In this document: piece by piece, positions 4,472 through 56,459 of the stretch | How positions within the stretch are numbered: position 1 is the first letter of the stretch | Layout: every line of letters begins with the position of its first letter | Virus record (IMG/VR): IMGVR_UViG_3300036982_001423 | DNA from: a virus | Lineage: Duplodnaviria; Heunggongvirae; Uroviricota; Caudoviricetes | Strand: one strand, 5' to 3' | DNA: 64,000 nt | Translations under genes and position numbers: made by a program | The notes under the pieces: model-generated | Databases searched by the model: none | The model's input: only the letters and a program-made list of their open reading frames with translations | What the model was told of the DNA's origin: nothing

Positions 4472-5671
4472 TTGCGAATTAAAATAAAGCGCAAGATACT
4501 GGTGATCACACTGAAGCATGTTTTATCCAAATCGCAATCGTCTCTAGAAGCATTCCAAGAGAAAGCGAGAGCAGAACACATCATAAAATTTGTCAAATCT
4601 CTTACTGAAAACAAACTTAAAATAATACAGTTGTTAGATTCAGGCTTATACCAAGCCGCAATCGCCCGCAGATTAAAACTTTCAAAATCATATATAAACC
4701 GATTCGTAAAAGAGTTATTACATAAAGGATGTATCTCAAAGGATTTCGTTAATCCTATAACTCATGTAGCTACATCGTACCTCATATCCCCTCAGTTAAA
4801 AGTTTATATTAAAAAACTAGAAACGTCAAAACCCAATTTTAATACGACATTAGCGATCCCCCATAACGTAAGATATAAATTCCCTATGATGGGAAAAAAA
4901 GTAAAAATATCGCTCAATACAAAACGTTTCGCCGCAGCGAAACTCAAAATGGAACGCGACTGGTGCATGCGTGGAGGAACGTGGTATAATTTCACTATGC
5001 GGCACGAACATATAGGGAATGTGGGTATCACAGTAACCCCCAGTTCATTATTAGTATATCAGAAAGACCGTTCTCCAATAATAGCCAAATCATGTGAAGA
5101 TGCAACGAATATCATAAGTATGAGTTTACACGAGGTTGCCAACAGGTTCGTGCAGGAACAGGCGTGGGAAAACGTGCATATAGAACTTGGACAACCAGAA
5201 CTTGTCGGAAGTCCCCATTTCGCTTTTAACAGTAAAATATCTCAAAAAATAGTTGCAGCGGGCAACGCACTCATGCAGGTAGGTAATGGATTAGAAATAG
5301 ATGACTCATTAAAGGGAAAATTCGATCAAGCAGAGATAGAAACTACAGATGCTACGCAAGCAGATTTAGTAGATAAGGGATTAAGAGTAGCAGCGGATAT
5401 TGAGAATATCGTTCCAGCAATGATCCAAAAGGAATTAAGATCAGTATCAGAGCAGGTATTAGGGATCAATGCACAAGCAGAGAAGATAGATTTAATCGTA
5501 AATTCAGTTCAAGCTCTTTGCCAGTCGGGACTTCCACGAGATCCAAGATTGGAACAACTTTTCAACGTCGTTGCAACTCAAGGAAAAACAATCAATCTCA
5601 TGCAAGAAAGCATGCTCGGAATCATCAAAAATATGGAATTAATGTTACACAATCAACAAAAAGGTGTTTGA
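4472..5671 (+). CDS. winged-HTH domain protein (putative transcription regulator) with large C-terminal domain
   Basis: N-terminal KLKIIQLLDSGLYQAAIARRLKLSKSYINRFVKELLHKGCI resembles an MarR/ArsR-like wHTH; 399 aa. Confidence 0.55.
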   Translation: MRIKIKRKILVITLKHVLSKSQSSLEAFQEKARAEHIIKFVKSLTENKLKIIQLLDSGLYQAAIARRLKLSKSYINRFVKELLHKGCISKDFVNPITHVATSYLISPQLKVYIKKLETSKPNFNTTLAIPHNVRYKFPMMGKKVKISLNTKRFAAAKLKMERDWCMRGGTWYNFTMRHEHIGNVGITVTPSSLLVYQKDRSPIIAKSCEDATNIISMSLHEVANRFVQEQAWENVHIELGQPELVGSPHFAFNSKISQKIVAAGNALMQVGNGLEIDDSLKGKFDQAEIETTDATQADLVDKGLRVAADIENIVPAMIQKELRSVSEQVLGINAQAEKIDLIVNSVQALCQSGLPRDPRLEQLFNVVATQGKTINLMQESMLGIIKNMELMLHNQQKGV

Positions 5672-6398
5672 AACGAGTCATCCAAACAAAACCTACACAA
5701 ATTTTTGCAAATTTTGTAAAAAAAAGTTTAAAACAAAAAATAAAATAAAATTATTCTGTTCAACAAACTGCTATGGAAAATGGCAATCAAAATACAGAAT
5801 AGGAAACAAGCATCATGGAACGGGAACAAAACAATCTCTTGAAACTAGAAAAAGAATATCAGAATCGATGAGTGGAAAAAACCACCCCAATTTTGGTATA
5901 AAATATTCAAAAGAAAGATGTTCCAAGATGAGTGAACGTAGTAAAGGAAAAAATAGTTATTGGTATAACAAAAAATTATCCCCCTCTCACGTAACTAATA
6001 TAATATCGGGAAATAAAAATAGCATCAAACGAAAATTAAACCCCCAAAAAAAAGGGATAGAATCTACGGCATGGTTAGGTGGAAAAACAAAAGAAAAATA
6101 CCCATCATTTTTAAGAGAGAAAACCGTTAATCGTATAATTTATGCAACTTATAGCAACAAATGTGTTATCTGCGGGGCATCTCCAGAGCAATCAAAAAAA
6201 GAAAGTAACTATGGATTAGCAAAACACCATTGGGATTATAACAAAAACTCAATTAATATTGTAACATTATGTAAAAAACATCACGATATGACTTCAATAA
6301 ACAAAGACCGCCCTTATTGGGAACAATACTTCCACGAACTAACAGCACTCACCTATGGGGGTACACCTATTATATTCAAAACGTTTCTAAAACCATGA
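5664..6398 (+). CDS. HNH homing endonuclease with NUMOD3 DNA-binding repeats
   Basis: Repeated E(T/E)RK(R/K)ISES..GK.HP..G motifs (NUMOD3); C-terminal CVICG...KHHWDYN...LCKKHHD HNH signature. Confidence 0.75.
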   Translation: MFETSHPNKTYTNFCKFCKKKFKTKNKIKLFCSTNCYGKWQSKYRIGNKHHGTGTKQSLETRKRISESMSGKNHPNFGIKYSKERCSKMSERSKGKNSYWYNKKLSPSHVTNIISGNKNSIKRKLNPQKKGIESTAWLGGKTKEKYPSFLREKTVNRIIYATYSNKCVICGASPEQSKKESNYGLAKHHWDYNKNSINIVTLCKKHHDMTSINKDRPYWEQYFHELTALTYGGTPIIFKTFLKP

Positions 6399-6687: not shown

Positions 6688-6876
6688 ATGTCAAAATACC
6701 TATTCCCGGCAAAAGAATTAACCGAAAGGGAAGGTGCATGTCCGAGATGTGGGTATATCCCATTAAAAATACTCATCAAGCACACATCACTAGCATACAG
6801 GGGTTTCAAGATGGAACCGTATACTCGTATAATGTATGCGTGTGAAGGGTGTAACAGCAGACTCTCTACACATTAG
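6688..6876 (+). CDS. small Zn-ribbon protein
   Basis: CPRCG...CEGCN pair of CxxC. Confidence 0.4.
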   Translation: MSKYLFPAKELTEREGACPRCGYIPLKILIKHTSLAYRGFKMEPYTRIMYACEGCNSRLSTH

Positions 6877-6880
6877 ATAA

Positions 6881-6915
6881 TATATATATAGCACAAGCGC
6901 CTTATTACTATTACT
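6881..6915 (+). promoter_or_regulatory. conserved promoter element TATATATATA-N7-CGCCTTATTACTATTA (copy 1 of 3)
   Basis: Same composite motif at 8265..8295 and 56405..56439, each ending about 20 nt before an ATG. Confidence 0.55.
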
Positions 6916-6932
6916 CAACAAGAGGTAATGGT

Positions 6933-8224: not shown

Positions 8225-8264
8225 AAAATAATTCATTTTTTCTTCTCTCGTATTTTCCCAAATC

Positions 8265-8295
8265 TATATATATACGGGACGCCTTATTACTATTA
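8265..8295 (+). promoter_or_regulatory. conserved promoter element TATATATATA-N5-CGCCTTATTACTATTA (copy 2)
   Basis: See 6881..6915. Confidence 0.55.
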
Positions 8296-8314
8296 TCCGA
8301 ATGGAGAATGTATT

Positions 8315-14529: not shown

Positions 14530-15621
14530 TTATTTATTTAGTTGAGCATATTCTTCTTTAGTATAGAAACATTTACCCCAATAGTCCTCATCAATAATCT
14601 TCTCAAATTTTTTGATCCATGTTAGTTTATCTTTTGCAACTTCCCCATGTTCTTTTGCAGTTAATAAAACAAATTTATTCGGATCTTCGCCCACATAATG
14701 CCGATACATATTAGGTTTTTTTGCAGTTCCAATATTAATCATCGCATAGTAACCGTGATCATCTTCAGACCATTCACAGCAAGCCCTCTCTTGCCAGTAT
14801 ACATGATGACGAGTTAATGCACGACCCCCATTATCTATTTTTGTTTTCTTAGAGAGGATACTACGATTATTTTGAAATGTATCGATTCTAACCCATAGAT
14901 CTTTATTCCACAATTCACAATATTTTTTCTTTCCATTATAACGAACATTCCCATACCAAAAACCGCCTACTTTTGCCTCCACAACTTTCATAGTGTGCAT
15001 TTCAGATTTAGGTCGTCCAATTTGTGCAAGACTCATCCGTTTACATGTTTCAGAAGTAAATGTTTGCCCTATATGTGCAATCCGCAGTTTTTCGCGGGTT
15101 ATTAAAGAAGCGGGCTTTCGTTTCGCTCTTACTTTCGGAATTTTCGGGATATCAACAAGTATTTTTACTGTCGCAACTTTATATTTAGATTCCCGTTGAG
15201 GTTTAATTTTAATTGGTCGGATTCGTTTTTTCTGGGATACGCTCATTCTTTTACGTGTTTCTTCTGACACGGGATTTAATACAGAACGTATCTTTAGGGC
15301 GTTTCGGATTTTATCTCTTGTGAGGGGGTTTTCCATCCGCTTTTTAGCCGCAACTCGCATACGTTCAAACGATTCAGCAGGAATTTCAAAATTAGTACGG
15401 TCATGTTTTTTAGTTATTATTTTTGCCGTATGTTCTTTTGATTGAATTTTTCCCTTATTTGCAATAGATAATTTTTTACGAGCCTCTGGAGAACGCATTC
15501 TCATTATAGCTGCATCAGATATTTTTTTACAATGTTCGGGAGTAAACCGTTTACCCCTATTTGCAACAGATAACTTTTGTCTCCAGTTCTTATATTTTAT
15601 AGGATCTTTTGGTGCAGGCAT
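14530..15621 (-). CDS. homing endonuclease, NUMOD3 repeats + HNH-like nuclease domain
   Basis: Only clear minus-strand gene; repeated RKKLSIANKGK / TRKRMSVSQKK / CKRMSLAQIGR NUMOD3-like motifs; C-terminal HH...N...H His-Me finger-like region. Confidence 0.7.
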   Translation of the reverse strand: MPAPKDPIKYKNWRQKLSVANRGKRFTPEHCKKISDAAIMRMRSPEARKKLSIANKGKIQSKEHTAKIITKKHDRTNFEIPAESFERMRVAAKKRMENPLTRDKIRNALKIRSVLNPVSEETRKRMSVSQKKRIRPIKIKPQRESKYKVATVKILVDIPKIPKVRAKRKPASLITREKLRIAHIGQTFTSETCKRMSLAQIGRPKSEMHTMKVVEAKVGGFWYGNVRYNGKKKYCELWNKDLWVRIDTFQNNRSILSKKTKIDNGGRALTRHHVYWQERACCEWSEDDHGYYAMINIGTAKKPNMYRHYVGEDPNKFVLLTAKEHGEVAKDKLTWIKKFEKIIDEDYWGKCFYTKEEYAQLNK

Positions 15622-15864
15622 ACACTCTATAAGAGTTAATATTATTTAATAATGCCTAATACCTAGTTTTATCCTATTGAATTAGTTACCCCAAACAAAT
15701 GCCCAATGCCGCAATCCCCAATTAGCACAAATCCCAAAATCTGGAATTATCTATTTTTTGACGCCTAATGCCGTGACACCTCCGAATCCTCGAATACCAA
15801 CGTAACGCCTAATGCCTAACCCCCCGGACTACTGCTCGGCATTGGAAGGCGCACCTCCGATCCC

Positions 15865-15951
15865 CCGACACCCCCCGCACAGACCCCTGCTAAAATTACA
15901 CGGATGTATATACAGGGAGAACACAGTTTTTTTAAAGCACTTCGATCCAAT
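15865..15951. repeat. direct repeat unit 1 (CCGACACCCCCCG ... AAATTACACGGATGTATATACAGG ... AAAGCACTT)
   Basis: Second copy at 16085..16157, about 220 bp away. Confidence 0.6.
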
Positions 15952-16084
15952 GCCGAGTATCCCGAAGGCGAGGCATTCGCACTCTCCGAGGACACGGCAT
16001 TGGTATTTTCCACCAGATTTTCTCCAACGGTTCACCCGCCGAGAACCCCGCCGGATCCCCCCGTATGACTAAAGCTCCTCCACG

Positions 16085-16157
16085 CCGACACCCCCCGAAC
16101 CCCCCGATAAATTACACGGATGTATATGCAGGAAAGAAGCCCAAATTATAAAGCACT
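16085..16157. repeat. direct repeat unit 2
   Basis: See 15865..15951. Confidence 0.6.
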
Positions 16158-17396
16158 TTAATTTATGAATAATTAATTATCCCCCTTCTTTCTTTCGTAC
16201 TATCTATTATTCCTCTGATAATCTCTATTCCAAAAGAGAGTACCCCCCTACCCCCCTAAGAGAAAGGGTTTTTCCCTTATTATCCCCATAGTGAATAAAG
16301 GTGATAAAGGGAATAGACCCCTCATAATAGGAGCAGGGTAATATCCCGCAGGGTTAAAGCTCTTTTATGGACTGCATATACAGAACGAAAATTACCGAGC
16401 CGAGCCAAGCCCCCAAGCCCAGACCCGACCCGACCCGACCAGACCAGACAAACCCCGGCACCGAGGGAAAGGACGACCCCCGCCCCCCGGACAACCCAGA
16501 ACGCAGGAACGATGGTACACGAGATTGCCGCACCCCCCGCACTTCTAAAGAAAATACGCCTGTACCAGACGAACTGCCGCACCAAGCCCTCCGAGGTAAA
16601 ACACCCCCCGCACACCTCTGACACCGAGGTTAAATTTAGAACCCCCCGCCTGTACACGCCTGTAAAAGCAGGTTCAAAAAAAGAGGCAAAAAAGAGTAAA
16701 AAAAGCCAAATCTCCGACGTAAAAATCACTTTCACCCCCCCGCCCAAAGGTATATATCCTACCCAGTCAATCTATCAATCATGCAATGGATGGAACAAAC
16801 GGGAGGGAAAAAGTGAACCAGTGAACCGGGACACTCCTTATCATAGGAGAAAACCCGGAAAAGGATCGGTGATAATCCAGAGGGTAAGCCCCCCTGATAA
16901 CAACCAAAATTTCCCGCCTGATAGGGAGATAAAAAGTTGTAAGTCAGGAGGAAACCTCAAATTATCCCCGACCAGACAATTTTAAACGAGCGACCCAAAT
17001 GTTAAATCGCCGTCATAAAGAGAGCAGATTTTATTTTTCACCCGATCAGTTATGACCTGACAAGACGGAGAGATTAGCCGGTAAACCGGGATAAGAGATT
17101 ATCGCAATGGGAAACTCAGCGTATCCGAGAGGATATACTAAACACAAACACCGAGGTAAAAACGAGTAATATCGTAAGTAACCCCACGAACAACCACACC
17201 CGTAAACCGTTAAACGGCACACGGAGAACAGCCGAAATTTACCAGTTATGGAAATTTAGGGATTTTTGTTTTTTCAATCGCCAACAACAGCCCGGCACAG
17301 GCAACCGGACGGGATTTATGTAAACCAGTTATGGAGTACACAGCAGGATCACGCCCTGCCAAATCCGTTAAAAAAACCAGTACCGCAAAACGACCA

Positions 17397-17435
17397 CAGA
17401 TCACGCCGAAACAGGCACGATCACGGAGGGAAAAT
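17397..17435 (+). promoter_or_regulatory. conserved 33-nt leader GATCACGCCGA-N-GGCACGATCACGGAGG immediately upstream of ATG (copy 1)
   Basis: Near-identical element at 22016..22057 ahead of another ATG; contains direct repeat CACGATCACG. Confidence 0.55.
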
Positions 17436-19067
17436 ATGACAACCGTAAAAAGCGAACTACTAACACACATTAAAGCGAAATATTCAATTATCGCCCTTCA
17501 GACTTCAGAAGAAGCCAGAGCGATCCGCATAATTGGAGAAATCGCAGCCGACCCGCAGACCGTAAAAAGACAAGTCTATATCGGCAGCATCACAAAGGGA
17601 TTATACCCCGCAGACGACGAAAAATCTTCTGGTTATTGTGCAGCCATCGACCTACTCAATATGATTGAGGAACAGCAAAACCAGACCAAACCCGCGCCGA
17701 CAATTTACATATTGCTCGACCAACACGAAGCGATCACAAACGACCTTACATATCGCCGGAAACTGCGAGATCTTCAGACCTTGTTAAAAGCGAAAAACTC
17801 AACAATTATTTTGATAAGCCCCACCGTAGAAGTGCACCCGGACTTATCAAAGACCATTACGGTTTTTGACCTGCCACTACCTGATAAGGTAGAACTTGAA
17901 GAAATCTTATGTACGCGGGTAAAATACCTACAAAAACAGGTAAAAACACTCAGGGATGAGATCACCAGTAAACCCGAACAAACCGCCAGTATCCAAAAGA
18001 AACTGGACACACTCGTACCGATCACCGAAGCACTCATACGACAAGCTACAGAGCAAAAGGATGCAATTGTTTCAGCCTTACAGGGAACAACCGGAGGAGA
18101 AGCAGATCAGACAATCGCCAAATGTATAGTTCTTAAAGATCTCAATATCTCAACAATTTTACAGGAGAAGAAGCAGATCGTTAAGAAATCCGGAGCACTC
18201 ACCTATCAGGAAACCGACGAAACAATCGCCGGAATAGGAGGGTTGAAAAACCTCATAAATTGGGGAAAATCAGCCCGGAACCGCTTTACTGAGACCGCAC
18301 GAAAGTACGGATTAACCCCGCCGAAAGGAGTTATTTTCGTAGGAGCACCGGGAACGGGTAAAACGTTAAGCGCAAAAGCACTTTCCAATCTATTCAATAT
18401 CCCCCTACTGACCTTAACAATGGCGGAAATGACTTCCAAGTACTACGGACAGACCGGCAATAACATGATAGCAGCGATCAAGCTGGCACAAGCTATGTCA
18501 CCCTGTATTGTGTTTGTCGATGAAATCGACAAAATGTTCGGTACTTCAGGAGGGAACGAACACGAAGAAAGCGCACGTACACGAGGAGCACTCTTAACCG
18601 CAATGGAAGAAAGCACAGGGATTTTCTGGTTAGCAACATGTAACCAACCCACTGCATTAGCGCCGGAACTGTTAGCCCGATTTCCTACTGTATTCCATGT
18701 AGATTTACCAAGCCCGACAGAGCGCAGGGAAATTTTTAGTATTCACCTAAAAAAGATCAACCGCGACCCAGTAAAATTTGACCTTGACCGCTTAACCGCC
18801 GTCAGTGACGGGTATGTTGGAAGGGAGATCCGGAACGCTTTACAGGAAGCGTTAGGACAATCTTTTGACGAGGGTATAGAGATCACAACCGATCATATCA
18901 TAAAAGCGATCCGCACGATCACCCCAACCAGCGTACAACGTAAGGACGATATCGGCAGGATCAGGAAATGGTGTGAATTAAACGCACGACCCGCCAACGA
19001 GCAACCGGAGAAACCGGAAAGCCCGACAATGAGCGAAGCAGATCTCAACAAAGAACTTGAGATCTAA
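17436..19067 (+). CDS. AAA-family ATPase (classical AAA clade) with about 290-aa N-terminal domain
   Basis: Walker A GAPGTGKT, Walker B IVFVDEID, second region of homology ALLTAMEE...ATCNQPTALAPELLARF; start placed at 17436 after conserved leader+SD (track ORF extends to 17331). Confidence 0.85.
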   Translation: MTTVKSELLTHIKAKYSIIALQTSEEARAIRIIGEIAADPQTVKRQVYIGSITKGLYPADDEKSSGYCAAIDLLNMIEEQQNQTKPAPTIYILLDQHEAITNDLTYRRKLRDLQTLLKAKNSTIILISPTVEVHPDLSKTITVFDLPLPDKVELEEILCTRVKYLQKQVKTLRDEITSKPEQTASIQKKLDTLVPITEALIRQATEQKDAIVSALQGTTGGEADQTIAKCIVLKDLNISTILQEKKQIVKKSGALTYQETDETIAGIGGLKNLINWGKSARNRFTETARKYGLTPPKGVIFVGAPGTGKTLSAKALSNLFNIPLLTLTMAEMTSKYYGQTGNNMIAAIKLAQAMSPCIVFVDEIDKMFGTSGGNEHEESARTRGALLTAMEESTGIFWLATCNQPTALAPELLARFPTVFHVDLPSPTERREIFSIHLKKINRDPVKFDLDRLTAVSDGYVGREIRNALQEALGQSFDEGIEITTDHIIKAIRTITPTSVQRKDDIGRIRKWCELNARPANEQPEKPESPTMSEADLNKELEI

Positions 19068-19226
19068 ACTTTTTTGTTGCTTTGTGTATATACATACACA
19101 AAACGAACACACCGATCACCCCGGTAAAAAAGCATTCAACAGAACAGCCATGAGAACACAGCGCACGACCAGAACGGGAACCCCCGCAAAACGGTCACAG
19201 CGCACGTTTATAGGAGGATCAACAGC

Positions 19227-19604
19227 ATGAGCCACATAACAACCGTAAGCACTAAAATAGTGCTTAAAAACGAGCAGATGATTAAGAACGCACTCACCGT
19301 AATGAGTAAGCAATTTGAGGGCATGACCTTTCAAAAAATGGATGAAAGCACCATTATGGTGAGATACGCAAAAATTGAGAACTACCAGACACACGGAAAC
19401 CTCAGGTTCATTAAGAACCCCGCCGGTATTTGGGAGATGCAGCTAGATACGTGGATGTGCGACGCGGAGATCGCTAAAGTCAGAGAAGCGTTTTTCGTGC
19501 AGTATCAGACCGCCGCAGTATCTTCATATCTGGCACAGAAAGGATATTCGACTACCAAGAAGAACGACGGCAAAAACGTAATCCTTTCCGCAGTGAGGTA
19601 CTAA
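19227..19604 (+). CDS. hypothetical protein
   Basis: SD AGGAGGATCAACAGC-ATG. Confidence 0.6.
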   Translation: MSHITTVSTKIVLKNEQMIKNALTVMSKQFEGMTFQKMDESTIMVRYAKIENYQTHGNLRFIKNPAGIWEMQLDTWMCDAEIAKVREAFFVQYQTAAVSSYLAQKGYSTTKKNDGKNVILSAVRY

Positions 19605-19605
19605 A

Positions 19606-19812
19606 ATGTCAGAACAACTCACAATAACGATCACCCCCGACGGAATAAAAATCGATGCAGCCGGATACACCGGGAATAAATGTATAGTGGAGCAAGATGC
19701 ATTAGAGAAGTTTTTACTTCAGACCGCCGGAGTTAGCACACGGAACAAAAACCAGAAAAGGAAACTTGAAACCAGCTATCAGAAAGCCCCCGGTAATCAG
19801 GTGAGGTATTAA
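19606..19812 (+). CDS. hypothetical protein
   Basis: coupled ORF; ends VRY like preceding gene. Confidence 0.5.
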   Translation: MSEQLTITITPDGIKIDAAGYTGNKCIVEQDALEKFLLQTAGVSTRNKNQKRKLETSYQKAPGNQVRY

Positions 19813-19814
19813 TT

Positions 19815-20579
19815 ATGGCAGTACCAACGGAAACATTAGACAGATCAATTTTTGTTGTCGGTATAAAAATGGGAAGCCCGAACCAGAGTAAAGGTGAAGA
19901 TCTGGACGAGTATGTTAGACAACTCACATACAAGAAACCGAAAGCTGAACGGTTACAGATCGGGAAAGTCCGGCAATCGATCAACGTAGTGGTTGACGGA
20001 ACATGCATGAAATTTTTCAACGTGAAGATCACCAACCAAGCCGGAAAAGAAACCCTTGAACGGGAATGCGCCCGAGCTGACGCAGAGATGAAGAAGATCG
20101 ACAGCACTATGCATGTAACCCCGGTCTTTTTCGAGGTAAAAGTATCATCCATGAACGCCGGTAACATGTTTGATCAAATGAAAGAACAGCTAAGCGTCCA
20201 AGTCCATCAAAAGGTACTGGATAGAGTAGAGAGCGCAATTGAGAACAGCCGGAACCCCGACGGCACGTATAAACCGATGACCGGCAAAACCCGCACAGCC
20301 TTGATCGCTATGTTAGACAAGATCAAGGAGATCAACGTATTAGGTGACGACGAAGTAGGAAACCGCATTGAAACCATGAAAGGACAGATCACCGAGGGCA
20401 GTTTAATCCCTATGCGAGATGAAATTTTAGCCTTGTTGGAGGATGTACAGGGCAGCGAGAACCTTGAAATCAGCCCCGACCAGACCGAGAGCGAGCACGA
20501 CCCGGACGAAAAGGAATACGAAGCAAAACCCTTCAAACCGAGCGCACAGGACGAGATCGCATTAGAGGATCTCATCTAA
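19815..20579 (+). CDS. hypothetical protein with acidic C-terminus
   Basis: 254-aa ORF. Confidence 0.6.
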   Translation: MAVPTETLDRSIFVVGIKMGSPNQSKGEDLDEYVRQLTYKKPKAERLQIGKVRQSINVVVDGTCMKFFNVKITNQAGKETLERECARADAEMKKIDSTMHVTPVFFEVKVSSMNAGNMFDQMKEQLSVQVHQKVLDRVESAIENSRNPDGTYKPMTGKTRTALIAMLDKIKEINVLGDDEVGNRIETMKGQITEGSLIPMRDEILALLEDVQGSENLEISPDQTESEHDPDEKEYEAKPFKPSAQDEIALEDLI

Positions 20580-20601
20580 TTTTTCGGAGAGATAAAGCAC
20601 C

Positions 20602-20787
20602 ATGATAGGAATATGCAAAAGCCGGAAGTCAGGACACACGGACACCGAGATCGACACCCTAAAAGAATGGAGATGTTGGAAATGTGTAGATATCGCATTC
20701 ATTAATCCGGAGGATAGAATTAAAGCTCAGCAAAAAGACTATTTTGCTGTTTGTGAGATGTGCCGGGATTTTACCCCGAAACCCTGA
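20602..20787 (+). CDS. small Cys-rich protein
   Basis: SD GGAGAGATAAAGCACC-ATG; C...C...CWKC...CEMC. Confidence 0.5.
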   Translation: MIGICKSRKSGHTDTEIDTLKEWRCWKCVDIAFINPEDRIKAQQKDYFAVCEMCRDFTPKP

Positions 20788-21072
20788 TATCCCCTCTATC
20801 ACCCGGCGTACCCTTAAGGGTACGCCTACCCTCTTTCCCCCCAAACAATGCATATACACAAAGGACTTTTTAAAGCACCTTTAGGGTTTAATCCCGTTGT
20901 GTATATCCCCGTATTATCGAAGTTAGTACGGAACGTTTTACACGCTGTTAAGCGTTATATTGTCCTTATGACGGTTCACTGCCGTATAAGGATTTTCAAA
21001 AGTATAGCTATTCGACCAACCCCGCACCCGACCCGTATAAAGGTCACAGTGCCCGTTTATTTGAGGATAATC

Positions 21073-21507
21073 ATGAGATCAAGCAAAGAGTTTAAATTAG
21101 AACCAACCAAGACCGGAACCCCCGCCTTGCCTGCCGGAGGAGGAGCTTATACGAATAAGTACTCAGCCCACACCGTACTATCAGCCGACCTTACTCATAA
21201 AACAGCCTTGTTTATCAAGACTGCCGGTAATCTGGCATGTATGAACGACCAAGCGATTATACCGATCCAGCAGGGGGATATCATAGTAATCTTACAGGGT
21301 CTTAAACCCGCGAGCGACCAGAACCCCGCAGCTAATATCGATGCATGGAAGATCACCGAGATCACCCCGACCACTGCAATAGGCGAGAGTATTGAGATCA
21401 CACACAACCAGATCCCTTATTCCGTGATAGAAGGATCACAAATCTACCACAACCGGGACGGCAGTTATTTCTGTTTATCCCCAGTAACAGGAGATAAAAA
21501 TGTCTGA
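21073..21507 (+). CDS. hypothetical protein (start chosen at ATG 21073 with SD GAGGAT; track ORF extends to 20848)
   Basis: Upstream extension has no SD and overlaps conserved motif region. Confidence 0.5.
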   Translation: MRSSKEFKLEPTKTGTPALPAGGGAYTNKYSAHTVLSADLTHKTALFIKTAGNLACMNDQAIIPIQQGDIIVILQGLKPASDQNPAANIDAWKITEITPTTAIGESIEITHNQIPYSVIEGSQIYHNRDGSYFCLSPVTGDKNV

Positions 21508-21916
21508 TATTTCAATGGGTATTAACCCTGAAATGGTTGAAATGCTCTTTAAAGAGTTGCAGATCAAGCCGGATCGCTATGACGCGATTTACGAGGTTTT
21601 AACCGAAGCAATCGCAATGTCAGGAGAAGAACCCCCAAACCCTTTCGATATGTTACAAAGGTTTATCGCCAAGACCTCAAAGGCTAATGAGCTAGCCTTC
21701 TTATGCTTCATGGCAGGCACGATCACCGGAACAATTGGCACACTCATCCAGAGCCACCAGAACACCCCGGAAATGTTGAAAAAAGCGATGATCTTTGGAG
21801 CTACACACTCCGAAGACGTACAAAAATTAGCCGCTGAAAATGGGTATAATCTCCCAACAGCAACCGCAGCAGAAGCCAAAAAGGTAAAACACCCCGACGA
21901 TATAATGTACGGATAA
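21500..21916 (+). CDS. hypothetical protein
   Basis: ATGTCTGA overlap; 138 aa. Confidence 0.55.
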   Translation: MSDISMGINPEMVEMLFKELQIKPDRYDAIYEVLTEAIAMSGEEPPNPFDMLQRFIAKTSKANELAFLCFMAGTITGTIGTLIQSHQNTPEMLKKAMIFGATHSEDVQKLAAENGYNLPTATAAEAKKVKHPDDIMYG

Positions 21917-22015
21917 TGTACGGATAATCATAATATTTTTGCACACCCCTAAAAACCATATACTTTTTGGGTCAGACCGAGAAGGATATTTTCAATATGT
22001 ATATGCAGGAGAATA

Positions 22016-22057
22016 CACGATCACGCCGACAAGAGGCACGATCACGGAGGAATAATT
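22016..22057 (+). promoter_or_regulatory. conserved leader CACGATCACGCCGACAAGAGGCACGATCACGGAGG (copy 2)
   Basis: See 17397..17435. Confidence 0.55.
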
Positions 22058-22219
22058 ATGAGCATAACAGATGAAAAAATTACACAATACATGATAGGAG
22101 GATTTTTCCTCATCATATTATTTGTTGGTCTTTGGAATGTAGCAGGAACAAATGGTATTTCAATCGCATGTTTCACCCTACTGATCCGCCAATGTTTAGA
22201 CCTAATGACAAAACCATAA
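22058..22219 (+). CDS. small membrane protein (53 aa)
   Basis: Strong SD GGAGGAATAATT-ATG; hydrophobic helices; below track cutoff. Confidence 0.55.
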   Translation: MSITDEKITQYMIGGFFLIILFVGLWNVAGTNGISIACFTLLIRQCLDLMTKP

Positions 22220-22299
22220 AAAATACGATCACAGGAGGATAACCAGATGATAACCCACCCATTTTTCACCACGCACAACGACGGAGAAAATTTTTACCG

Positions 22300-22566
22300 C
22301 ACCCACGAATGCCGAGCAACCGAGCCACAGATCCAATGCCAAGTTCCGATCCGCAGACGAATGCCGAGTAGTTTTGGGGAACACGGCATTGGCTCCACAG
22401 GTAAGGCATTAGGCTTCCATCCTGTATATGCAACACGAACTCCACTGGCGAGTCAAGGTATTTCGTGTGGAACACGGCATTAGGCTTCGACGGAATGGTA
22501 AAGAACACGCCCAGAATACCCCAGACAATGGGTATGTATATGCACAAGACATTAGGCATTACGACG
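22300..22566. repeat. cluster of GGCATTAGG / AATGCCGAG motifs in non-coding region
   Basis: At least 8 copies of the GGCATT/AATGCC core; same motif in opposite orientation at 15649..15816. Confidence 0.55.
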
Positions 22567-22576
22567 GAGGTTCAAA

Positions 22577-22780
22577 ATGTCAGACATAAGTAAAGGACTA
22601 AAATTAGTGCAAGAAACGGACGCACAGATTTATCAAAAAGTAAAGGAACTCAAAGACCTTATGTATGAGCGCAGAACTCTAATGGAAATGATCAAAGAGA
22701 AAGCGCCGGACGACTGGTTAGATCAATTTCTCACTACGGGTAATCAGATCTCAATAGAGGATATTGAGATATTCATTTAA
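22577..22780 (+). CDS. hypothetical protein
   Basis: SD CGGAGGTTCAAA-ATG. Confidence 0.55.
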   Translation: MSDISKGLKLVQETDAQIYQKVKELKDLMYERRTLMEMIKEKAPDDWLDQFLTTGNQISIEDIEIFI

Positions 22781-22986
22781 CTATTTCGGTTCATAGTTCC
22801 GAGGTTAAATATAACCGGGATAATACCCCGGCAGTATAGCAGGAGAACATCATTTTCCCTCAAAATATCAATATATTTTTCATACCTGTATATACATCGG
22901 TTCAATCCGAGGGCAGGTTTTCAGAGTATCGTAGGAGAACACAGCGCACAACTCAAAGAAAGTTAAGCGCACGTTAAAGGAGATTG

Positions 22987-23628
22987 ATGTATATGCACAG
23001 ACAAGAACCTATCGAAACTATTGTGGAACCCGCCCATTTCCGGGCAGGAGTTTACCACCAAACACAAACATTGAAAATCTATCAGGACGACGATCCGCAA
23101 AACCCCCGGACGGAATGGGATAACTTCGGGAAAATGGTATGCTTCCACAAAAGATACCAGTTAGGGGATGTAGGACACGGCATTAGTGAGGACGATTTTT
23201 CTGCATGGTCGGAACTGGAACAGTATTTGATTGAGGAGAAGGGTGCGGCTGTAATTCTGCCAATTTATATGTATGATCATTCCGGGCTATCAGTGAATAC
23301 GACAGGATTTTCGTGTTCATGGGATAGCGGTCAGATTGGATATACATATATAACCTGCAAAGAAATACTGGAGAATTGGGGGGAGAACCAGATCACAAAG
23401 GAACTCCGTCAGAAAGCCCATGATCTTTTAGTTGGAGAAGTCCAGAACTACAACGATTATCTCACCGGAAATGTATATGGATATATTCTGGAAGATGAGA
23501 ACGGTAACGAACTCTGGTCATGTTGGGGATATTCCGGGGATGGCGCAGTCGAGCAGATCAAATCCGAACAACTGTATATACACAACTCACAGAAATCCAC
23601 AGGAACTCAAGTTAATGCAGAGGCGTAA
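22987..23628 (+). CDS. hypothetical protein (MYM start)
   Basis: SD AAAGGAGATTG-ATGTATATG. Confidence 0.6.
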   Translation: MYMHRQEPIETIVEPAHFRAGVYHQTQTLKIYQDDDPQNPRTEWDNFGKMVCFHKRYQLGDVGHGISEDDFSAWSELEQYLIEEKGAAVILPIYMYDHSGLSVNTTGFSCSWDSGQIGYTYITCKEILENWGENQITKELRQKAHDLLVGEVQNYNDYLTGNVYGYILEDENGNELWSCWGYSGDGAVEQIKSEQLYIHNSQKSTGTQVNAEA

Positions 23629-43333: not shown

Positions 43334-43780
43334 ATGTCAGGAAAGGAAGAACTTAACGAAACGAATGAGATACTGTATGGAAAGAAGAACGCAAAGCCGG
43401 TAACTGATATTGTTACTAACGGTAAACCAGAGAAGGTCAAGACTGGCGGCGACGAACTGATGGATGAGATTTTGTATGGAAAGAAGAAATCTAAAGTTGC
43501 CAGTGGAGAGCCGAAAGCAAAGACTGATGGCGATGAGCTGATGGACGAAATCTTGTATGGCAAGAAGAAACCCAAGAAATCAGGCGACCCGACAGAAACC
43601 AAAGAACCGAAAGCAAAGACTGATGGCGAAGACCTGATGGATGAAATCTTGTATGGCAAGAAGAAACCCAAGAAATCTTCGGATAAGAACTATGTCGAAG
43701 CCATGACAGATGAGTTAGTTAAAGATGCGCCGAAACCAAAAGGCAAGAAGTTTGACAGGGATGAATATTTCGGGCTGTGA
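43334..43780 (+). CDS. tandem-repeat protein (4 x EILYGKKK / DELMDEILYGKKK units)
   Basis: SD AAAAGGAGTGTATAAATT-ATG; four repeats visible in translation and DNA. Confidence 0.6.
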   Translation: MSGKEELNETNEILYGKKNAKPVTDIVTNGKPEKVKTGGDELMDEILYGKKKSKVASGEPKAKTDGDELMDEILYGKKKPKKSGDPTETKEPKAKTDGEDLMDEILYGKKKPKKSSDKNYVEAMTDELVKDAPKPKGKKFDRDEYFGL

Positions 43781-45861: not shown

Positions 45862-46920
45862 ATGATCTTAACCTTCAAACTCAAGCATGAACAGAACTAT
45901 GATAGTCTGTTAAAGAAAGCGTTTGAAGTAGCGGAGTTTACGGTTGCTAATAAGATCCGATCCCCGAACACTACGTTTGTTAAAGATATACGGGGAGATT
46001 TACCGTCAATGATAGCATGTCAGGTGATGAAAAAGTATGGTCATCAGAAAACGATCAAAGCAGTTCACAATGCCAACTTAATTATACCGGGACAGGGTGT
46101 AAAGTATATTGAAGAAACGAACTCTATTTGGATACCGTGTCTGAAACTACATTTAGAGAATACTATTAATCGGACTTTCAGTAAGATCAACCAAGTAGAA
46201 GTTGACCGAGAGTTTGCGTATATTTCATGCACTGTAGCAGAACTACCGGAGATGATACCCTATGAAAATATCATAGGAGTTGACAGGAACACAACCGGAC
46301 ACATAGCCGTATCAGCGAACTTAACTACAGGTCAGGTAAGGATGATGGGTAAGAAAGCCCAACACCTCCATACAAAATACCGACAGTTAAGAACGGCTAT
46401 GCAAAAGGACGGACAGTATCGCAAGGTTGAACGGATCAAGAGCCGTGAAAGCCGGATCGTGAAGGACTTAAACCATAAGATCAGTCGTAAACTGGTTGAT
46501 ATGGCGAAAGTCCAACATGCAGCATTAGTATTCGAAAAACTGACGGGTATTCGAAATACTAAAAAACAATCCCGTTCATTCAAGCCATCCCTGCACAGTT
46601 GGTCATTCTATCAACTACAAACGTTCATAGAATACAAAGCCAAGCTGCTCGGAGTGCCTGTTATATACGTTGATCCCGCATACACTAGTCAAGACTGTTC
46701 TAAATGCGGTACAAGAGGACAACGATATAAAAAGGTGTTTAAGTGTCCTGCTTGTGGACACGCAGATCATGCAGACGTTAATGCAGCGTTCAATATTGCA
46801 AAACGTCAACAAACCATGATCGCTCGTATACAGACAAAGATGTGTACGATGGGAGCACTGATCTCCCACGACGACGCTCTGTTCGAACGCGAACACCGTT
46901 TAGAACCCCACGGTCTTTAG
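45862..46920 (+). CDS. tnpB: TnpB (IS200/IS605 OrfB) RuvC-like RNA-guided nuclease
   Basis: RuvC-I GVDRNT, RuvC-II E in LVFEKL, Zn finger CSKCG...CPACGH, RuvC-III HADVNAAFNIAKR. Confidence 0.85.
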   Translation: MILTFKLKHEQNYDSLLKKAFEVAEFTVANKIRSPNTTFVKDIRGDLPSMIACQVMKKYGHQKTIKAVHNANLIIPGQGVKYIEETNSIWIPCLKLHLENTINRTFSKINQVEVDREFAYISCTVAELPEMIPYENIIGVDRNTTGHIAVSANLTTGQVRMMGKKAQHLHTKYRQLRTAMQKDGQYRKVERIKSRESRIVKDLNHKISRKLVDMAKVQHAALVFEKLTGIRNTKKQSRSFKPSLHSWSFYQLQTFIEYKAKLLGVPVIYVDPAYTSQDCSKCGTRGQRYKKVFKCPACGHADHADVNAAFNIAKRQQTMIARIQTKMCTMGALISHDDALFEREHRLEPHGL

Positions 46921-56190: not shown

Positions 56191-56404
56191 AGATCAGGAT
56201 CGGTGAAATAAATGATTTGTCCGGGATGTATTTTAGCAGGGATTGCGATTTGGTATGCGTTATTTTGGGATAAAACAAAAGCATGGGTTTCAAAAAAGTA
56301 TAAATTACTCAAAGGTGAAGAACAAATTTGATTGAATGTATATGCAGGTAATAACTTTCTGATGCGGATAATTACTGGCACGTTCAAGTTCGTTTTGTAA
56401 AGAA

Positions 56405-56439
56405 TATATATATATACCCCAAGCACCTTATTACTATTA
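56405..56439 (+). promoter_or_regulatory. conserved promoter element TATATATATATA-N9-CCTTATTACTATTA (copy 3)
   Basis: see 6881..6915. Confidence 0.55.
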
Positions 56440-56459
56440 TTCAATAAGGATGTGAATCT

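Follow-up and report, generated by a model that had tools for sequence, protein, structure and literature searches.

Leaders of the ATPase module

The subject of this study is a leader sequence that is repeated in 64,000 nucleotides (nt) of viral DNA (Caudoviricetes; IMG/VR record IMGVR_UViG_3300036982_001423), where it precedes an AAA+ ATPase gene and several neighboring genes. This 64-kb stretch, referred to as the window, looks like part of a large uncultivated phage. Its open reading frames (ORFs) are nearly all on the plus strand, mostly small and unannotated, and its gene content includes homing-endonuclease-like genes, a methylase and a TnpB-like gene. There was no tRNA in the window and no DNA similarity of the window to deposited phages.

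A sequence-only reading of this DNA had reported a conserved 33-nt element ahead of two genes, with an internal 10-nt direct repeat and a GGAGG Shine-Dalgarno (SD) sequence 5-8 nt before an ATG. That observation is real but incomplete rather than wrong. The two look-alike sequences are present, as CACGATCACGGAGG occurs exactly at 17416-17429 and 22037-22050 with an ATG after each, and the SD spacings are 5 and 7 nt. At ≤2 mismatches, CACGATCACGGAGG had 2 matches compared to 0.19 expected, and 2 or more were found in 3 of 100 shuffles. The stretch common to both copies is 26 nt long with 88% identity (17410-17435 and 22031-22056). Further upstream, 17330-17355 and 22002-22027 are 73% alike when the 52 nt between the two occurrences of GATCACGCC in copy 1 are skipped. 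The first copy had been placed at 17397; its GATCACG begins two bases later, at 17399. The direct repeat is exact in copy 2, but copy 1 has ACAGATCACG and CACGATCACG.

The 33-nt element is really part of a leader of about 90-130 nt with two hairpins, which has five copies in the window. In addition to the reported pair before ATG 17436 and ATG 22058, there are three more, before ATG 19227, ATG 21073 and ATG 22987, and a fragment at 22225-22239. Each of the five leaders heads a translation unit of the ATPase module. A covariance model, R1, was built from eight clean sequences and run on the window with filters off. The reported copies scored 50.6 and 46.9 bits, the copy at 22944 ranked third with 11.7 bits, and nothing credible was found in the 64-kb window outside 17.3-23.0 kb. 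The copies before ATG 19227, which has a long loop, and ATG 21073 were recognised by reading and folding. The features of the leaders are as follows.

17333..17342, plus strand: box GGAGTACACA, a variant of GGAGAACACA, at the 5' edge of the ATPase leader
17343..17359, plus strand: hairpin 1 of the ATPase leader, GCAGG-AUCACGC-CCUGC (by fold and covariation)
17399..17422, plus strand: hairpin 2 of the ATPase leader, the reported copy 1, GAUC-AC-GCC-gaaaca-GGC-AC-GAUC (R1, 50.6 bits)
17425..17430, plus strand: SD GGAGGG, 5 nt before ATG 17436
17436..19067, plus strand: AAA+ ATPase gene, 543 amino acids (aa) from the corrected start (by PF00004, phrog_8638 and homologues)
19085..19094, strand not assigned: palindrome TGTATATACA ahead of the g125 leader
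19111..19125, plus strand: hairpin 1 of the g125 leader, ACCG-AUCACCC-CGGU
19161..19203, plus strand: hairpin 2 of the g125 leader, long form, GCGC-AC-GACC-[22 nt with a stem of its own]-GGUC-ACA-GCGC
3' end of the g125 leader, plus strand: ACG, AGGAGG at 19212-19217, ATG 19227
20971..20985, plus strand: hairpin 1 of the g144 leader, ACGG-UUCACUG-CCGU
21024..21052, plus strand: hairpin 2 of the g144 leader, GCAC-CC-GACC-cguauaaa-GGUC-ACA-GUGC
3' end of the g144 leader, plus strand: GAGGA at 21063-21067, ATG 21073
21963..21984, plus strand: hairpin-1-like stem-loop CUUUUUGG-gucaga-CCGAGAAG, 5' of the palindrome (tentative assignment)
21998..22017, plus strand: palindrome TGTATATGCA with box GGAGAATACA directly after it
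22019..22043, plus strand: hairpin 2 of the 22058 leader, the reported copy 2, GAUC-AC-GCC-gacaaga-GGC-AC-GAUC (R1, 46.9 bits)
22046-22050, plus strand: SD GGAGG of the 22058 leader, then ATG 22058
22887..22910, plus strand: palindrome TGTATATACA, then hairpin 1 of the g213 leader, UCGG-UUCAAU-CCGA (22897-22910)
22934 (start), plus strand: box GGAGAACACA of the g213 leader, with hairpin 2 after it
22944-22970, plus strand: hairpin 2 of the g213 leader, GCGC-AC-AACU-caaagaa-AGUU-AA-GCGC
3' end of the g213 leader, plus strand: ACG, SD AGGAG at 22978-22982, start TTG 22984 or ATG 22987

The leader is repeated within at least a dozen related contigs, which carry L numbers here. At least 4 copies were found in L004, at least 5 in L003 and three each in L011, L008 and L010. 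R1 detected non-seed copies in these relatives at E values of 1e-5 to 1e-9 (three in L011, L004:15178, and L003:7152 and 8970). The g125 leader has orthologous leaders in L003, L072, L009 and L075-77. A loose structural regular expression by itself gave 22 hits in the window compared to about 19 in shuffles, and only the full-context hits were real.

Structure and covariation of hairpin 2

Hairpin 2 follows a single plan: a 4-bp outer stem G-N-N-C, a 2x2 internal loop with 5' AC opposite AC, AA or CA, an inner stem of 2-5 bp, a variable loop, an ACG tail and the SD. The apical part ranges from 4 to about 60 nt (the smallest loops are 3-4 nt) and has no fixed sequence. The SD is 2-12 nt 3' of hairpin 2, which lies 10-28 nt 5' of the start codon. 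RNA structure prediction, which the sequence-only reading had named as a check, gave the same hairpin architecture in every folded sequence, and the minimum-free-energy folds leave the SD unpaired.

To avoid circularity, an unbiased set of 18 leaders was picked solely by homology of the downstream protein (10 ATPase and 8 g125), and the hairpin finder used on it left the internal-loop letters unconstrained. Hairpin 2 was found directly 5' of the SD in 17 of the 18. The internal loops in this set were AC (rarely CC) opposite AC, AA, CA or ACA, and the ACG tail was mostly present. An AC-type hairpin preceded 3 of the 78 other SD+ATG starts of the window.

Over 26 distinct leaders from the window and the related contigs, 98.9% of the 182 stem cells of hairpin 2 were paired. 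Two-sided changes were seen in five of the seven pairs (GAUC/GAUC, GAAC/GUUC, GCGC/GCGC, GAGC/GCUC, GCAC/GUGC, GUCC/GGAC), and GC, UA, AU and CG were all found at one pair position. There were 42 cells with two-sided changes compared to 13.5 ± 2.4 in shuffles (0 of 500), and when the partner was slid by 1-3 columns only 10-40% of the cells were paired. Compensation also occurs at short range: the GCGC/GCGC of the window is replaced by GUCC/GGAC in L009, whose protein identity is about 91%. Stems differ even within one genome: the window has GAUC twice, GCGC twice and GCAC/GUGC once, and L004 has GCGC, GAGC/GCUC and GAAC/GUUC. Whole-leader MAFFT alignment misplaces the 3' arm of the GATC-type copies, owing to the two occurrences of CACG in them, and fixed-length stem strings were therefore used for the pair counts.

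The sequence-only reading had offered two explanations for the repeat. One was a binding site for a dimeric regulator, which does not agree with the relatives, where the repeat decays and the pairing is kept (GAAC..GUUC, GAGC..GCUC, GUCC..GGAC, GAUC..GAUU). When the regions upstream of the ATPase orthologues are aligned, GAUC...GAUC in the window is GAAC...GUUC in L001 (97% identity), and the direct repeat itself is not conserved. The apparent direct repeat CACGAUCACG arises because the GAUC outer stem is self-complementary and C-AC-G recurs at the helix junctions. The other, a shared structure in the 5' untranslated region, was the right kind of idea, as a hairpin with extensive covariation is located there.

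Hairpin 1, box and palindrome

In nearly all leaders, the start codon is preceded by hairpin 1 at a distance of 73-102 nt. Hairpin 1 lies 30-50 nt upstream of hairpin 2. It consists of a variable 4-5 bp stem and a conserved loop of 6-7 nt, (A/U)UCACGM. Stem variants include GCAGG/CCUGC, CCGG/CCGG, AAAGA/UCUUU and GGGG/CCCC. The four loop-proximal pairs are 85-100% paired, all with two-sided changes (0 of 500 shuffles). The GGAGAACACA box is usually 5' of hairpin 2. At ≤1 mismatch it had 16 matches compared to 8.9 expected, with exact or near copies at 15916, 17333, 19151, 22008 and 22934.

A 10-nt palindrome, TGYATATRCA, also occurs upstream in the leaders, before or after hairpin 1 depending on the genome. 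The order of hairpin 1, palindrome and hairpin 2 in the 22058 leader is also found in L004, L008 and L010. As a leader promoter the palindrome showed weak enrichment (33% compared to 24% within 150 nt upstream of SD-preceded starts), and 18 of 50 sites fall inside SD-preceded ORFs. It could be an operator, part of a promoter or an RNA hairpin. A literature search on the palindrome and on similar leaders gave nothing relevant.

The palindrome is frequent across the window, with about 50 sites (e.g. 15905, 16121, 19085, 21998 and 22887). It is about 100 times commoner than expected (72 strand-matches compared to 0.57), and L004 has 16 sites per 21.6 kb. The flanks have dyad symmetry, T-rich at -9 to -7 and A-rich at +16 to +18, and in relatives the site often grows to palindromes of 18-20 nt.

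Sense-strand RNA and known families

On the plus strand, six G·U pairs occur in hairpin 2 and three in hairpin 1, compared to one A·C. The G·U pairs, the position on the gene strand, the adjacency to the SD, the differing stems and the variable spacing all argue for RNA of the sense strand rather than a dimer site in duplex DNA, and indicate that the leader is a sense-strand 5' leader RNA. An antisense reading was considered and rejected. It would turn AC/AC into tandem G·U on the minus strand, but the AA, CA and ACA variants are unpaired there, and the nine G·U pairs of the sense strand would be A·C mismatches.

A search of Rfam 15 at gathering thresholds gave no match over the whole window, nor did one with permissive filters at E ≤ 1 over 15600-23100. 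Both hairpins lack a U-tract after them, their tails being CAAAUCC, ACGGAGG and ACGUUUAUAGG. A sigma-70 promoter scan of 15500-23000 found 13 sites compared to 12.0 expected, and none of them recurs in the leaders. BoxA (CGCUCUUA-like; YGCTCTTWA or GCTCTT) is absent from all five leaders. The apical loops do not resemble boxB, as they run from 3-4 to about 60 nt with no fixed sequence. No attC R-box pairs (RYYYAAC ... GTTRRRY) flank the hairpins, whose outer stems are GATC, GCGC and GCAC/GTGC. The stems, 7-9 bp in the short forms and about 12 bp in the long forms, are too short for T7-type RNase III sites.

For the exact 16-mer GGAGAACACAGCGCAC there were 4 hits in viruses and 82 in genomes, fewer than chance predicts for 596 Gb, and none came with the rest of the element. 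The pattern CACGCC-N4-20-GGCACGWTCAC gave more than 120 hits in IMG/VR, all of them repeats in coding sequence (ITGTPTGGTFTL) from high-GC phages, and their spans are multiples of 3. Scanning IMG/VR with a single protein returned no relatives, and a profile scan found only distant ATPase relatives (25-39% identity), all without leaders. Relatives are from metagenomes only, one of them on a 180-kb contig. As far as the searched collections show, only one clade of metagenomic phages has the leader. Most likely, the leader is an RNA control element that several gene groups share and that the RNA-family database lacks, and it is a new structured RNA motif of a known general kind, rather than a new principle.

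Corrected gene starts

The gene behind copy 1 encodes an AAA+ ATPase (PF00004, 1.8e-29; phrog_8638, 2.4e-99). The sequence-only reading had moved its start to ATG 17436, and the homologue lengths and the in-frame stops upstream in relatives bear this out. Close homologues are 542-550 aa long and match the 578-aa long form over its last 94% only; this portion equals the form that starts at 17436. In L001, with a 97% identical protein, there is an in-frame stop 54 nt upstream of the ATPase start and no start between, and 7 of 9 relatives have no in-frame upstream start. The relocation to ATG 17436 is, on these alignments, supported. The ORF at 20848-21507 probably needs the same kind of correction. 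Its annotated start, ATG 20848, sits within a palindrome, ATG 21073 follows a leader and SD, and the g144 orthologues in L003, L004, L008 and L010 begin at the residue equivalent to ATG 21073, which is most likely the real start.

The orphan ORF and the likeness of leader copies

Gene order in the module is conserved across the clade; in relatives, the ATPase is followed by a syntenic set of g125, g68, g254, sometimes g61, and then g144 and g138. The ORF behind the 22058 leader stands apart from this set.

22058..22219, plus strand: 53-aa hydrophobic ORF with no orthologue in the related contigs (phrog_9657 only at E = 0.0013)
22225..22239, plus strand: leader fragment ACGAUCACAGGAGGA, the 3' arm of hairpin 2 and SD, repeating 22038-22051, with no fold of its own

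The sequence-only reading had proposed co-regulation of the ATPase and a small membrane protein. The shared leader extends to five units rather than two, and the supposed membrane protein is this orphan. The orphan is bracketed by ACGAUCAC(A)GGAGGA at 22038-22051 and 22225-22239, so that a hairpin 2 3' arm and SD lie on each side. This suggests that the 53-aa ORF may be a cassette-style insertion with one leader copy as the junction. The equivalent last leader in L003 drives an unrelated 113-aa gene.

When the last 70 nt were compared, the ATPase and 22058 leaders were the most similar pair in the window (0.73), and the ATPase leader and its L001 orthologue scored 0.77. Some within-genome pairs exceed orthologues (0.87 in L008, 0.83 in L003 and 0.79-0.81 in L004, compared to about 0.6), and some copies within a genome have been homogenised or duplicated. 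General concerted evolution was rejected, as the within-genome mean equals the orthologous mean (0.65 and 0.65); only particular pairs are homogenised.

Possible function of the leader

We propose that the reported repeat makes up the promoter-distal half of a structured RNA, a 5' leader present in several copies, and that this RNA would be the operator for a candidate trans-acting factor controlling the ATPase module. We give this proposal an even chance. Each of the five units is headed by a GGAGAACACA-like box, hairpin 1, hairpin 2, the ACG tail and the SD. The factor, most likely a phage protein, would bind this leader and, from a site 10-28 nt from the start codon, would co-ordinately control ribosome access, mRNA stability or both. 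An operator is proposed because the stems and the apical part are free to vary while the unpaired AC / A(C/A), the ACG and the UCAC of the loop are held; such a pattern is what one expects where a trans-acting factor reads the site, more than in a hairpin that merely stabilises. Since the predicted folds leave the SD free, occlusion by the bound factor would be likelier than sequestration of the SD. The position of the site, within reach of an initiating ribosome, would suit a protein-bound translational operator.

Several points weigh against this proposal. The alignments behind the pair counts had their loops removed and their register set by hand from sequence anchors, some of their rows were found by the regular expression or the model and so are partly selected on pairing, and the orthologous rows are not independent. 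The single-sequence fold z-scores are modest (-0.4 to -2.7). AU/UG replaces AC/AC in the internal loop of the g125 and g144 leaders of L008 and, therefore, the conservation of the unpaired letters is not absolute. The ATPase of L079, which overlaps its upstream gene, has no leader. That hairpin 1 and hairpin 2 are always on one RNA is a prediction, and the order of palindrome and hairpin 1 differs between genomes. Lastly, PADLOC, Pfam at E ≤ 5 and PDB gave no candidate RNA-binding protein in the module; the module protein searches gave generic AAA hits only and a sub-threshold DUF2997 hint for the 68-aa protein.

Another possible explanation is that the element works without a factor, as a passive 5' stabiliser, as a standby site or insulator that keeps the SD unpaired, or as a host endoribonuclease site at which the polycistronic RNA is cut. 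The hairpins head each translation unit, the SD is single-stranded in the predicted folds, the apical part is freely variable, and no partner protein turned up in the module. We nevertheless consider it rather unlikely, as it leaves unexplained why AC / A(C/A), the ACG tail and UCAC persist through changes of the stems, and why, in a window of more than 100 genes, only one module has the element. For the endoribonuclease version, stems of 7-9 bp are also far below the length of an RNase III substrate. A processive antitermination site, in which a nut- or put-like leader RNA makes the polymerase read through terminators in the module, could account for the presence, in leaders of phage operons, of short hairpins whose loops are rich in purines (GAAACA, GUAAAA, GACA, GACAAGA) and for the terminator-like hairpins with T-runs before some leaders (19040-19075 and 21963-21990). 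However, there is no boxA-like sequence and no Rfam match, the loop varies from 4 to about 60 nt whereas boxB requires a defined pentaloop, and a copy lies immediately before the SD of every unit and not once per operon, which makes antitermination improbable. An operator in double-stranded DNA, with the direct or inverted repeat bound by a dimeric transcription regulator, fits the exact 10-nt direct repeat of copy 2 and the palindrome-containing region nearby. It is very improbable all the same. The repeat is not conserved as a repeat (GAAC..GTTC, GAGC..GCTC, GTCC..GGAC), G·T positions occur, and half-site spacing runs from 16 to about 75 nt. Half-sites also differ between copies of the same genome, and a single sequence-specific DNA-binding dimer could not read such different stem sequences.

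Two further explanations concern recombination. The orphan ORF between element fragments would suit a folded single-stranded DNA site that marks gene cassettes, like an integron attC, and so would the conservation of structure rather than sequence and the unpaired central part with a variable terminal structure. But the hairpin arms have none of the R-box core sites RYYYAAC / GTTRRRY, attC stems are much longer, synteny is conserved, and there is no integrase among the window proteins scanned; we regard this as the least credible of the explanations. A mobile regulatory cassette is unlikely but deserves more weight. It would resemble the promoter-early stem-loops (PeSLs) of T4-type phages, portable expression signals whose homology drives recombination, gene insertion and gene loss, and the near-identical pair would be its trace. 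The bracketed orphan without an orthologue, the unrelated 113-aa gene behind the equivalent L003 leader and the particular within-genome pairs far more alike than orthologues all favor it, and PeSLs likewise finish with an SD and start codon, their recombination taking place between the SD and the -10 (PMC2839356). On the other hand, the gene order of the module is conserved across the clade, mean within-genome identity equals that of orthologues, there is no sigma-70 promoter or terminator in the element, and recombination accounts for neither the covariation nor the held unpaired letters. The cassette explanation is compatible with the operator proposal and is not a replacement for it.

The operator proposal can be taken a step further, to a new type of post-transcriptional regulon. 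The factor would read C-AC-G junctions at three places in each leader (the loop of hairpin 1, and the internal loop and 3' tail of hairpin 2) and switch the ATPase module, and the same cassette would act as a gene-insertion junction. We hold this to be a rather long shot. If true, a single portable RNA/DNA element would link regulation to the acquisition of genes.

In any case, the leader is a concrete candidate for a cis-regulatory RNA in a large uncultivated phage lineage with almost no annotation. The leaders mark where five translation units begin, provide corrected starts for two genes (17436 and 21073) and tie several orphan genes to the AAA+ ATPase as one putatively co-regulated set. 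The covarying stems with their fixed unpaired letters are a ready bait for a binding factor. The bracketed ORF hints at a way in which such phages may add genes to a control circuit that they already have.

Surroundings of the module

A 58-69-aa gene lies directly 3' of the ATPase in most relatives (e.g. L003 3625-3819 and L004 11654-11845). The window (19068-19226), L072 and L009 do not have it, and there the ATPase runs straight into the g125 leader. A 61-aa ORF at 20602-20787 (plus strand) has two CxxC pairs, is zinc-ribbon-like and is conserved in L009 and L008, with a paralogous segment at about 28297. Its product is a possible regulator that would bind nucleic acids.

In composition, the ATPase module differs from the remainder of the window: its G+C content is 0.46 at 16000-22000 compared to about 0.40 elsewhere, and the GC skew is negative at 14-18 kb. 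Upstream of the ATPase, about 1.7 kb (15622-17330) is without a convincing gene, and relatives have comparable gaps. Within it, 16540-17100 aligns to L001:25-605 in blocks of near-100% identity with variable patches and 1-nt indels between them, and a 157-aa ORF (16512-16985) is not kept in L001. From this pattern the region looks like a conserved non-coding element, perhaps a structured RNA or an origin; it had no Rfam match in the search of 15600-23100 at E ≤ 1. Small arrays of GGCATTRGGC lie in inverted orientation on both sides of the module in the window (15654-15816, minus strand, 4 copies; 22405-22557, plus strand, 3 copies) and in L003 (265/289, minus strand; 8034/8125, plus strand), and sites are also found in L076 at 677-909. 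At ≤1 mismatch there were 16 compared to 4.0 expected.

Homing-endonuclease-like ORFs with NUMOD3 repeats (phrog_314; PF07460) are found at 14530-15621 (minus strand) and 5664-6398 (plus strand). The former borders the gene-free region, and no other minus-strand gene of notable size lies near the module. A 352-aa ORF at 45862-46920 (plus strand) is TnpB-like, with a Cas12f1-like TNB domain (PF07282, 1.4e-26). In-frame tandem repeats of 81-99 nt, in 3-4 copies that are ≤95% identical, lie within a coding region at 43365-43677. A 48-nt repeat that looks intergenic (ATATATATA...GCGCCTTATTACTATTA) occurs at 6875-6922, 8257-8304 and 56401-56448 with 63-85% identity.

Comparison with known systems

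RNA elements at or next to the ribosome-binding site by which a phage protein regulates translation, as proposed here, are known from T4 (RegA, gp43 and gp32) and from the coat-protein operators of MS2 and PP7. The T4 RegA regulon covers many mRNAs, and RegA sites lack structure, are AU-rich and extend over the AUG. In the gp43 and MS2 operators, which are small hairpins, certain unpaired bases are critical, and the gp43, gp32 and MS2 operators each serve a single gene. In contrast to these, the leader lies 5' of the SD, has two hairpins and occurs in 4-5 copies per genome, and its partner is only postulated.

The small hairpins with purine-rich loops in phage operon leaders are also reminiscent of the lambda nut and HK022 put RNAs, although action as RNA is a prediction here. 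Lambda-type nut sites consist of boxA and boxB, and boxB has a 5-bp stem and a GNRA-like pentaloop of fixed size. The leader differs in that it lacks boxA, its loop length is unconstrained, its internal loop is conserved, and one copy lies beside the SD of each translation unit. The T7 RNase III processing sites are likewise repeated intergenic hairpins with an internal loop between phage genes. Those sites have a helix of about 20 bp, about two helical turns, compared to 7-9 bp in the leaders and about 12 bp in their long forms.

The closest known systems include the PeSL cassettes (Arbiol, Comeau & Krisch 2010, PMC2839356; Comeau et al. 2014, PMC4122927). A PeSL combines a sigma-70 consensus promoter with a terminator stem-loop that has a G/C tract, and ends in an SD and start codon (PMC2839356, PMC4122927). 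Like PeSLs, the leaders are short composite cassettes with a stem-loop that recur between genes in a variable region of the phage; an SD and start codon close each of the five copies, and leader fragments flank an orphan ORF. Unlike PeSLs, the leaders have no sigma-70 consensus (-35, -10 and AT-rich upstream sequence), and their recurring upstream motif is TGYATATRCA. They also have no terminator by sequence and carry instead two small covarying hairpins with conserved unpaired letters, in a module whose gene order is mostly conserved.

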